From: Parcubacteria group bacterium
GTDB taxonomy: Bacteria > Patescibacteriota > Minisyncoccia > Moranbacterales > UBA9337
Length of the DNA stretch: 64,000 bases
Assembly: GCA_041662245.1 (NCBI GenBank)
Contig: JBAZSW010000001.1
Coordinates: forward strand, 11,714 to 75,713
Direction: 5' to 3'
The position numbers and the translations under genes were made by a program. The notes below the pieces were generated by a model, which saw only the letters and a list, made by a program, of their open reading frames with translations, had not been told where the DNA came from and did not search any database. Below, one piece after another: positions 18,892 through 20,902 of the stretch; position 1 is the stretch's first letter, and each line of letters begins with the position of its first letter.

Positions 18892-18914
18892 ATCTGAGCG
18901 GGTGAAAGAAATCC
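18892..18914 (-). repeat. Degenerate copy of the tRNA-Gly 3' end (about 22 nt, same orientation as the gene), preceded by a terminator-like hairpin.
   Basis: atctgagcgggtgaaagaaatcc compared with the tRNA's atctgagcgggtgaagggaatcg. Each copy is preceded by an aaaacaNNN...hairpin. Confidence 0.6.
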
Positions 18915-19016: not shown

Positions 19017-19036
19017 TTCGATTCCCTTCACGCCCA
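19017..19036 (+). repeat. Inverted-orientation copy of the tRNA-Gly T-arm and acceptor 3' segment.
   Basis: ttcgattcccttcacgccc on the + strand matches the tRNA's TTCGATTCCCTTCACCCGC. Confidence 0.55.
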
Positions 19037-19085
19037 AAAATAAAACAAAACTGTGCGAAAAGCACAGTTCTGTTTTATTAATCTG

Positions 19086-19158
19086 AGCGGGTGAAGGGAA
19101 TCGAACCCTCGTCCTCAGCTTGGAAGGCTGATATAATAAGCCACTATACGACACCCGC
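19086..19158 (-). tRNA. tRNA-Gly (anticodon UCC).
   Basis: Cloverleaf folded by hand. Acceptor GCGGGTG/CACCCGC, anticodon stem TCAGC/GCTGA with loop CTTCCAA, T-loop TTCGATT, discriminator U. CCA is not encoded. Confidence 0.85.
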
Positions 19159-19397
19159 TTACGCTACGCTTCAGCGAGGCAAAGCCCGCTTTTGTTATAT
19201 TCTTATGTGTACCTTTAGTATTATAGACAAAAATAAAAATTTGTCCAGTTTTTAAATTGAGAATAGAAAAAAATATTTTAAAGTTAATCTTGAAAAAATA
19301 TTGACTTACTGTTTAGAATATGTCAAAATGAACAGTTGTCAAAATCAATGATGATAACTGTGGAAATTATCTAAGAGTACTTTAAAAGGAGAATAAC

Positions 19398-20588
19398 ATG
19401 CGTAAAAATACAGATACTCAAGAAAAACGGCGGCAACTTGTAAAAATGCTTTATGAGAGTGGAATTTCAATGGCATGGATCGCAGACTGGCTTGGAATAA
19501 ACGCACGTACTGTTTGCAATGATGTCTTAAGGGATAAAATGGTTGCTTTTCAGGGCAAAAAGAAGAAAGAGATCTGGGTTAATGTTTTAGGGAAATATGT
19601 CTCACTTTTCAATAGTGAAGATGTACTTCAAAAAGAGGTGAGTCTTCTTATGGCTGAATGGTTAAATATTAGTCGTATGGATGGAACATTCAAAATTCTT
19701 GATGGTGTCGCTCTTTTCTTGAATCATCCTCAAATTTCAGATCAAGAGAAAGGTTTTCTTGATTTGATCTGGATGCTTAGAGGAAAAGTAGATGTCAAAC
19801 ATCCAGCCAAAGAAGTTTGGGAAGAATATCTCGAGCGGGAACTTTTTCACAAAAAAAAGGTTACTCCAGGATGTACTTATTACGATTTTCTCGGCTATGA
19901 ATCGGGTCCAAAAAATTTGGAAGAATTGATTAGCGGATTCTATCAATTCTGGGCAAATACTCAGCGTCAGAATATTGGAGCGGATTGGACAGATAACCGG
20001 CATGTGAGTGAAGTATTTGATGAAATGTTGGGAACACTAGAATTTCGTCGTGATGAGCAGGTGCTGAGAAAATTATTTGGCATTGGTTGCAAATCATGTA
20101 GTCAAAAAGAAACGGCTAAAGAGTTGGGCATCAACAGTCCTCAGCGAATCGTGCCTATTAAGAAAAGAGCTTTGAGTCAGTTGCGCTTTTCTCCTGAAAA
20201 ACGTAAATTAGAAAAGCTGTATTATTTGCCGGAAAAAACAGTAGACCCAGAAAAAGTGATTGTTGCATTGCGGGCGGAGGTAGCGGAGCTTAAAAGAGAT
20301 ATAAATTGTTCCAAAGAAAAAATTGTCCAAAAAGAAATCTTTGAAAGTCTTTGTTATCGAAGCATTGAGGAGCTTGAATTATCAATTCGATCACTTAATT
20401 GTTGCAGAAATAATGATATTAATCTGATCGGAGAGTTAGTTCAATGCACTGAAGTGCAACTATTGAAAATGAAGAATTTCGGGCGTAAATCATTGCATGA
20501 AATTAAGGCTATTCTTGCAGAAAAAGGTTTAGCGCTTGGGATGAAAATTGAACATTGGCCCGATGAAGAAACGTTTCGGGAGATGTAG
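19398..20588 (+). CDS. DNA-binding protein combining an N-terminal transposase-like HTH, a sigma-70 region-4-like HTH and a C-terminal RNA polymerase alpha-subunit CTD-like domain.
   Basis: The C-terminus [68 protein letters not shown] aligns residue-by-residue with the E. coli RpoA CTD ([66 protein letters not shown]). The middle [40 protein letters not shown] resembles sigma region 4.2. The N-terminus [29 protein letters not shown] is a transposase-like HTH. Good SD (aaaaggag) upstream. Confidence 0.7.
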
Positions 20589-20712
20589 ATATGAAGTTAG
20601 ACTGAATTTTTTTCTTGTTCAAATAACCGTCGAGTAGCTATTCAGTTAGTTCGGCGGTTTTTTTAATATTGACTGCTTAATATTTGACCTATATTATAGA
20701 TAAGTAATGTTT

Positions 20713-20785
20713 GGGCCATTAGCTCATCTGGTAGAGTGCTCCCATGGCATGGGAGAGGTGGCCGGTTCGAGTCCGGCATGGTCCA
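20713..20785 (+). tRNA. tRNA-Ala (anticodon GGC).
   Basis: GGGCCAT acceptor with the G3:U70 identity pair, anticodon stem CTCCC/GGGAG with loop ATGGCAT, T-loop TTCGAGT, discriminator A. CCA is not encoded. Confidence 0.85.
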
Positions 20786-20902
20786 CTGTCCGTAGGAAAT
20801 TTCCAAATCCCAATTTCCAAACAAATATTAAATATCAAATTCCAAATTTAAAAAATAATTCGTTAATGCGTTAACTCGTTAATTAAATAATAAATCAAAA
20901 AT

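Follow-up and report, generated by a model that had tools for sequence, protein, structure and literature searches.

A stand-alone RNA polymerase alpha-CTD joined to a degenerate sigma region 4 in a member of a rare protein family of CPR bacteria: a candidate reader of promoter-upstream DNA

Within the window analysed here, a stretch of 64,000 nucleotides from a Parcubacteria group bacterium, one gene encodes a protein (named at NCBI 'RNA polymerase subunit alpha C-terminal domain-containing protein') in which an HTH, a helical domain, a degenerate sigma region 4, a helix linker and an RpoA-type alpha-CTD follow one another (Table 1). We tentatively propose that MFA6183489.1 could be a stand-alone multi-module DNA-binding transcription regulator, a polymerase-independent reader of A/T-rich promoter-upstream DNA which would likely compete with polymerase. 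Judged from sequence comparison, this protein belongs to a conserved but rare family and is not a one-off chimera. By the same comparison it is an outlier of this family, combining a degenerate sigma-4 recognition helix with an alpha-CTD that retains every DNA-contact residue.

Table 1. Positions in the window of the gene, the modules of its product and the surrounding elements
Feature	Position	Strand	Remarks
CDS	19398..20588	+	396 aa, ATG start; NCBI MFA6183489.1
N-terminal three-helix HTH, aa 2-45	19401..19532	+	resolvase/transposase/DeoR type
Family-specific helical domain, aa 56-213	19563..20036	+	
Sigma-70 region 4-like domain, aa 200-265	19995..20192	+	RpoD type in the family, degenerate in this protein
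Single long linker helix, sigma-4 to alpha-CTD, aa 284-319	20247..20354	+	AlphaFold model, pLDDT 56-85
RpoA-type alpha-CTD, aa 318-390	20349..20567	+	Pfam, PDB search, structure superposition
Shine-Dalgarno GGAG	19387..19390	+	7 nt 5' of ATG, read from sequence
Promoter-like sites upstream of CDS	19290..19329	+	TTGAAA-18-TAGAAT; TTGACT-17-CAAAAT with TG; consensus scan; putative, consensus match only
Intrinsic-terminator-like hairpin followed by U7	20625..20664	+	RNA fold
tRNA-Gly(tcc)	19085..19158	-	orientation opposite to that in relatives
tRNA-Gly promoter-like site TGGACA-16-TATAAT	19247-19220	-	consensus scan
tRNA-Ala(ggc)	20713..20786	+	
tRNA-Ala promoter-like site TTGACT-17-TATTAT	20669-20697		consensus scan
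tRNA-Gly 3'-end fragment (scar)	18892..18913	-	same orientation as intact tRNA-Gly; direct repeat
tRNA-Gly 3'-end fragment (scar)	19017..19036	+	opposite orientation; inverted repeats
Terminator-like hairpin after the + strand scar	19049-19069		terminator scan; longer inverted repeat 19039-19079

The assignment of the C-terminus to the RpoA alpha-CTD, made in the original prediction from the letters alone, is well founded. Pfam RNA_pol_A_CTD (PF03118) matches aa 318-375 with an E-value of 6.9e-21 and 74.2 bits (cut-off 23.8), and E. coli RpoA chains in the PDB are matched too (E about 3e-22 to 1e-21). In the AlphaFold model of the 396-aa protein (pLDDT 86.8), the domain superposes on the E. 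coli structures 3k4g, 3n4m and 3n97 with 0.6-0.7 A over 71 residues and 54% identity. Using E. coli numbering (target residue minus 66), the residues binding UP-element DNA, R265, N268, C269, G296, K298, S299 and E302, are all kept. Among those touching sigma region 4 in E. coli, E261 is retained and D259 is replaced by E, while the CAP-contact residues T285, E286 and V287 are also present. Because DNA, sigma-4 and CAP contact residues are kept, the suggestion that such a free module could bind UP-like DNA or mimic RpoA contacts appears a fair reading. Across the family, R265, G296 and K/R298 are each found in 15 of 16 alpha-CTDs. The tree of these domains, built on 71 columns, is star-like.

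The same kept surface would also suit a molecular decoy, in which the free alpha-CTD (with sigma-4 in relatives) titrates activators and anti-sigma-type proteins away from polymerase. The patch T285-E286-V287-L289 is almost unchanged, the 261 patch is kept too, and the domain is 70% identical to that of a bona fide Gram-negative RpoA. We nevertheless judge this reading very unlikely: over the family and a viral set described below (the viral figures being partly biased by the search patterns) the DNA-contact residues are conserved whereas the 287 patch is not, and three DNA-binding modules lie on one chain, which favours DNA as the ligand.

While sharing the fold of the E. coli RpoA CTD (3k4g, 1lb2/3n4m, 3n97), all its UP-element contacts and most of its 261 and 287 patches, the domain differs from it in context. 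Other DNA-binding modules come before it on the chain, and the gene lies outside the rpsM-rpsK-rpsD-rpoA-rplQ cluster in which the true RpoA loci (L018, L019) are found. As had been proposed, the alpha N-terminal dimerisation domain is missing: Pfam searches up to E = 1 gave no match to PF01000 (RNA_pol_A_bac) or PF01193 (RNA_pol_L), and tblastn of full RpoA against the 64-kb window retrieved the CTD only, with no other rpoA-like sequence in the window. NCBIfam rpoA models likewise match by their last ~90 positions only (52-110 bits against cut-offs of 228-523). Without an alpha N-terminal domain joined to it, this alpha-CTD can form no part of the polymerase core. Domain searches of the protein and of the family found neither sigma region 2 (PF04542) nor region 3, nor any core-binding element that could be recognised. 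Lacking the alpha N-terminal domain and sigma region 2, the protein thus does not qualify as a polymerase subunit, nor as a sigma factor.

To delineate relatives, aa 1-315, with the alpha-CTD left out, were searched by phmmer against 1.84 billion representatives. This gave 24 matches, about 18 of them aligning over aa 5-280: P0179 (E 2.7e-20), P0180 (E 4.4e-20) and about 16 more. These ~18 protein clusters display the layout of N-terminal HTH, helical domain, RpoD-type sigma region 4, linker and alpha-CTD. In the alignment of 19 sequences (our protein plus 18), the alpha-CTD closes 16, ours included, and the other three stop after sigma-4. The linker varies in length, and the motifs WLGI, GY..LL..IF, W..YL and R..I.PIW are common to the alignment. 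At NCBI the members go under 'alpha C-terminal domain-containing protein'. No known fold match was found for the helical middle domain, in which aa 150-173 form a low-confidence insert specific to our protein in the AlphaFold model.

The nearest homologue comes from a Moraniibacteriota MAG, and the homologues sit in ordinary chromosomal neighbourhoods; the family is one of CPR-type chromosomes, Moraniibacteriota included. A genome-contig scan with the P0179 N-terminus recovered only its own Moraniibacteriota MAG and, via sigma-4, three Rickettsiales RpoD genes. Homology search with the whole protein returned mostly RpoA, via the alpha-CTD, plus three sigma-4 + alpha-CTD proteins (P0001, P0005, P0046); our protein was masked in this search, its 90% cluster representative being an unrelated 55-aa fragment of 58% GC (P0058/L020). 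A profile search of a 5.8-billion set with the N-terminal alignment retrieved one protein only, whole-protein scans of genome, metagenome and viral collections gave no matches, and the family alignments diverge too strongly to be used in pattern scans. The protein, genome and metagenome searches brought up no close orthologue. A literature search on this architecture or on free alpha-CTD proteins gave nothing relevant.

The sigma region 4-like HTH, also part of the original prediction, is below threshold in our protein taken alone (Sigma70_r4 21.0 bits against 24.1; TIGR02937 E 1.2e-5) and is secured by the family, in which 18 of the 19 aligned members match Sigma70_r4 (best E 5.6e-18). RpoD C-terminal models are matched by 17 of 19. 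The match covers the extreme C-terminus of these models, that is their last ~70 residues including ERIRQIE.KALRKLRHPSR; the family lacks regions 1.2-3 of the primary sigma. Relatives keep Q589 in 18 of 18, K597 in 16 of 18 and the HPSR tail. In our protein, by contrast with the rest of the family, only R586 remains among the -35-reading residues (E. coli R584, E585, R586, R588, Q589), and the conserved basic C-terminal patch is replaced, the substitutions being R584P, E585Q, R588V, Q589P, R596S, K597Q and R603E. The conserved family and the RpoD-type character of a sigma-4 that is degenerate in this copy are two points overlooked when the gene was first described.

Two other identities were considered and rejected. 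The sigma-4 part makes 17 of 19 family members match the C-terminus of MzaA, a sigma-like protein belonging to the MZA anti-phage system (NF041931, PDLC02203). These matches are restricted to positions ~600-716 of 726 and, at 51-93 bits, fall short of the 800-bit cut-off, while our protein itself has no PADLOC match and no Mza partner genes lie nearby; an MzaA or defence function is ruled out. The N-terminal module is indeed a small HTH of the resolvase/transposase type, as initially described, and JGI names the protein 'transposase-like protein'. A transposase is however ruled out, since the HTH alone is present, with no DDE or serine/tyrosine recombinase domain in Pfam/NCBIfam.

How could such a chain work? 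In the family it would combine an N-terminal HTH, a helical domain, a primary-sigma region 4 as -35 reader and an alpha-CTD as UP-element reader, in a protein that seems devoid of every part for attachment to the polymerase core. The minor-groove surface of the alpha-CTD (R331, N334, G362, K364 and S365 in our protein) would bind A/T-rich promoter-upstream DNA, and the N-terminal HTH a second DNA site. Binding would be independent of RNA polymerase, so that promoter regions would be occupied or marked. The most likely effect would be competition with the polymerase alpha-CTD and sigma-4, leading to repression or tuning of UP-dependent promoters. For our protein this UP plus -35 picture does not hold literally, because the changes R584P, E585Q, R588V and Q589P leave it with a degenerate sigma-4 recognition helix. 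Here sigma-4 probably has a structural role or an altered specificity, and DNA would be read mainly by the alpha-CTD and the N-terminal HTH.

A structural precedent is offered by 3n97, one of the best matches of the model, in which an alpha-CTD and a sigma region 4 are both bound to UP/-35 DNA. In that ternary complex the two modules are adjacent on promoter-upstream DNA, the arrangement that the fusion would hard-wire; they come there from two polymerase subunits, whereas here they belong to one chain without polymerase attachment. By module type, the family may also be likened to WhiA, phage Mu Mor/C and GcrA, promoter regulators built on sigma-4-like or small HTH modules, none of which carries an alpha-CTD to our knowledge.

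The beta-flap is the usual docking site of sigma region 4, so that a polymerase contact is possible. The protein might then be an RNAP-associated accessory factor, its sigma-4-like or middle domain docking on polymerase, for example at the beta-flap, and the tethered alpha-CTD with the N-terminal HTH serving as extra upstream DNA reader, which would make it an activator or specificity factor and not a competitor. Binding to the beta-flap is known for phage-encoded proteins, namely minimal one-HTH sigma-like proteins and T4 gp33 (PMC7824862). In the family, sigma-4 resembles RpoD up to its extreme C-terminus, the acidic '261' patch, a contact of sigma region 4, persists in our protein and in many relatives, and viral sigma-4 + alpha-CTD genes occupy early or regulatory regions of phages, adjoining genes for a CI-like repressor and Erf/exonuclease. 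Nevertheless, the lack of sigma regions 2 and 3 and of a recognisable core-binding element in the domain searches, together with the loss of the conserved basic C-terminal patch from this sigma-4, makes an accessory factor unlikely. As an observation against the competitor model, the kept 261 and 287 determinants would be just as consistent with a decoy or with a protein associated with RNAP.

Degeneracy of sigma-4 raises another question, that of a decaying or non-functional family member in which this domain erodes. The recognition helix deviates at invariant or nearly invariant family positions, with two prolines among the changes, and both the peculiar insert and the failure to detect a close orthologue would agree with decay. 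Against this, the reading frame is intact and of full family length, the model is very confident, and the alpha-CTD is conserved better than in any other member. The gene is moreover equipped with its own Shine-Dalgarno, promoter-like sites and terminator-like hairpin (RNA fold of 20586-20672: -20.3 kcal/mol, z -2.94 versus shuffles), elements by which it would form an independent transcription unit. Decay is hardly probable in our opinion.

The module logic of this protein recurs independently on 49 viral contigs (IMG/VR loci L021-L069, predicted phages), on which small alpha-CTD proteins were found by pattern search. Like ours, they carry a free alpha-CTD without alpha N-terminal domain. Sigma region 4 precedes it in 12 of 49, and three (L035, L052, L061) have the layout of our protein, with an N-terminal HTH, a sigma-4/Mor-like HTH, a coiled coil and the alpha-CTD. 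They differ from it in being shorter (75-342 aa), in lying in phage genomes and in showing no detectable homology to its N-terminal HTH and helical domain.

In textbooks the alpha-CTD and sigma region 4 belong to the machinery of bacterial transcription, and they have been regarded in no other light. Here the two are fused on proteins unable to join polymerase, in a conserved family of CPR bacteria as well as, independently, on many phage contigs, suggesting a simple, testable principle of molecular mimicry that competes with or pre-empts the upstream promoter contacts of polymerase. It is conceivable, though doubtful, that the CPR family and dozens of phage proteins belong to a widespread, hitherto undescribed class of 'portable promoter-upstream readers', made up of free alpha-CTD proteins, some with a sigma region 4 and some lacking it. 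Such readers would need no RNA polymerase to bind UP/-35-type DNA, and would throttle or re-route transcription from strong UP-dependent promoters such as those of rRNA and tRNA. T4 Alt/ModA ADP-ribosylate R265 and thereby chemically disable the host alpha-CTD; portable readers, if real, would be the protein-mimicry counterpart of this device. They could also provide global growth-rate control in genome-reduced CPR bacteria. The protein is a concrete candidate global regulator in Patescibacteria, and its viral counterparts a possible new phage device for host takeover or gene timing. These proteins are small and soluble-looking, and directly testable on well-characterised E. coli promoters.

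There remains the origin of the gene. Its location between tRNA-Gly and tRNA-Ala, in a neighbourhood that includes gyrB and an FKBP gene, and the presence of two real tRNA-Gly 3'-end scars near tRNA-Gly bear out the initial description, from which arrival on a mobile or phage-derived islet had been suggested. This suggestion is weakly supported. What stands in its favour is a synteny comparison with two relatives (UvrB 91% identical): the gene is missing at their tRNA-Gly/tRNA-Ala site, the two tRNAs being 57 bp apart on one strand, and tRNA-Gly with its promoter is inverted in the window relative to them. What does not follow is mobility itself. No integrase, transposase or phage gene was found in the interval around the CDS, composition is native (GC 0.377, GC3 0.32, codon distance inside the host range), and both scars are located beyond tRNA-Gly as seen from the gene, without bracketing it. 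Attempts to rebuild an integration event from the scars yielded no consistent scenario, the intergenic DNA being too diverged from the relatives for breakpoints. No relative of the full-length protein was found in phage and IMG/VR collections, nor any viral or phage relative of its N-terminal 280 aa, and the homologues are chromosomal. That the gene is cargo of such an islet, redirecting host transcription, accordingly seems improbable to us, despite the same module logic on viral contigs. A further point on the side of an islet comes from another run, whose short-read assembly is interrupted within both tRNAs.

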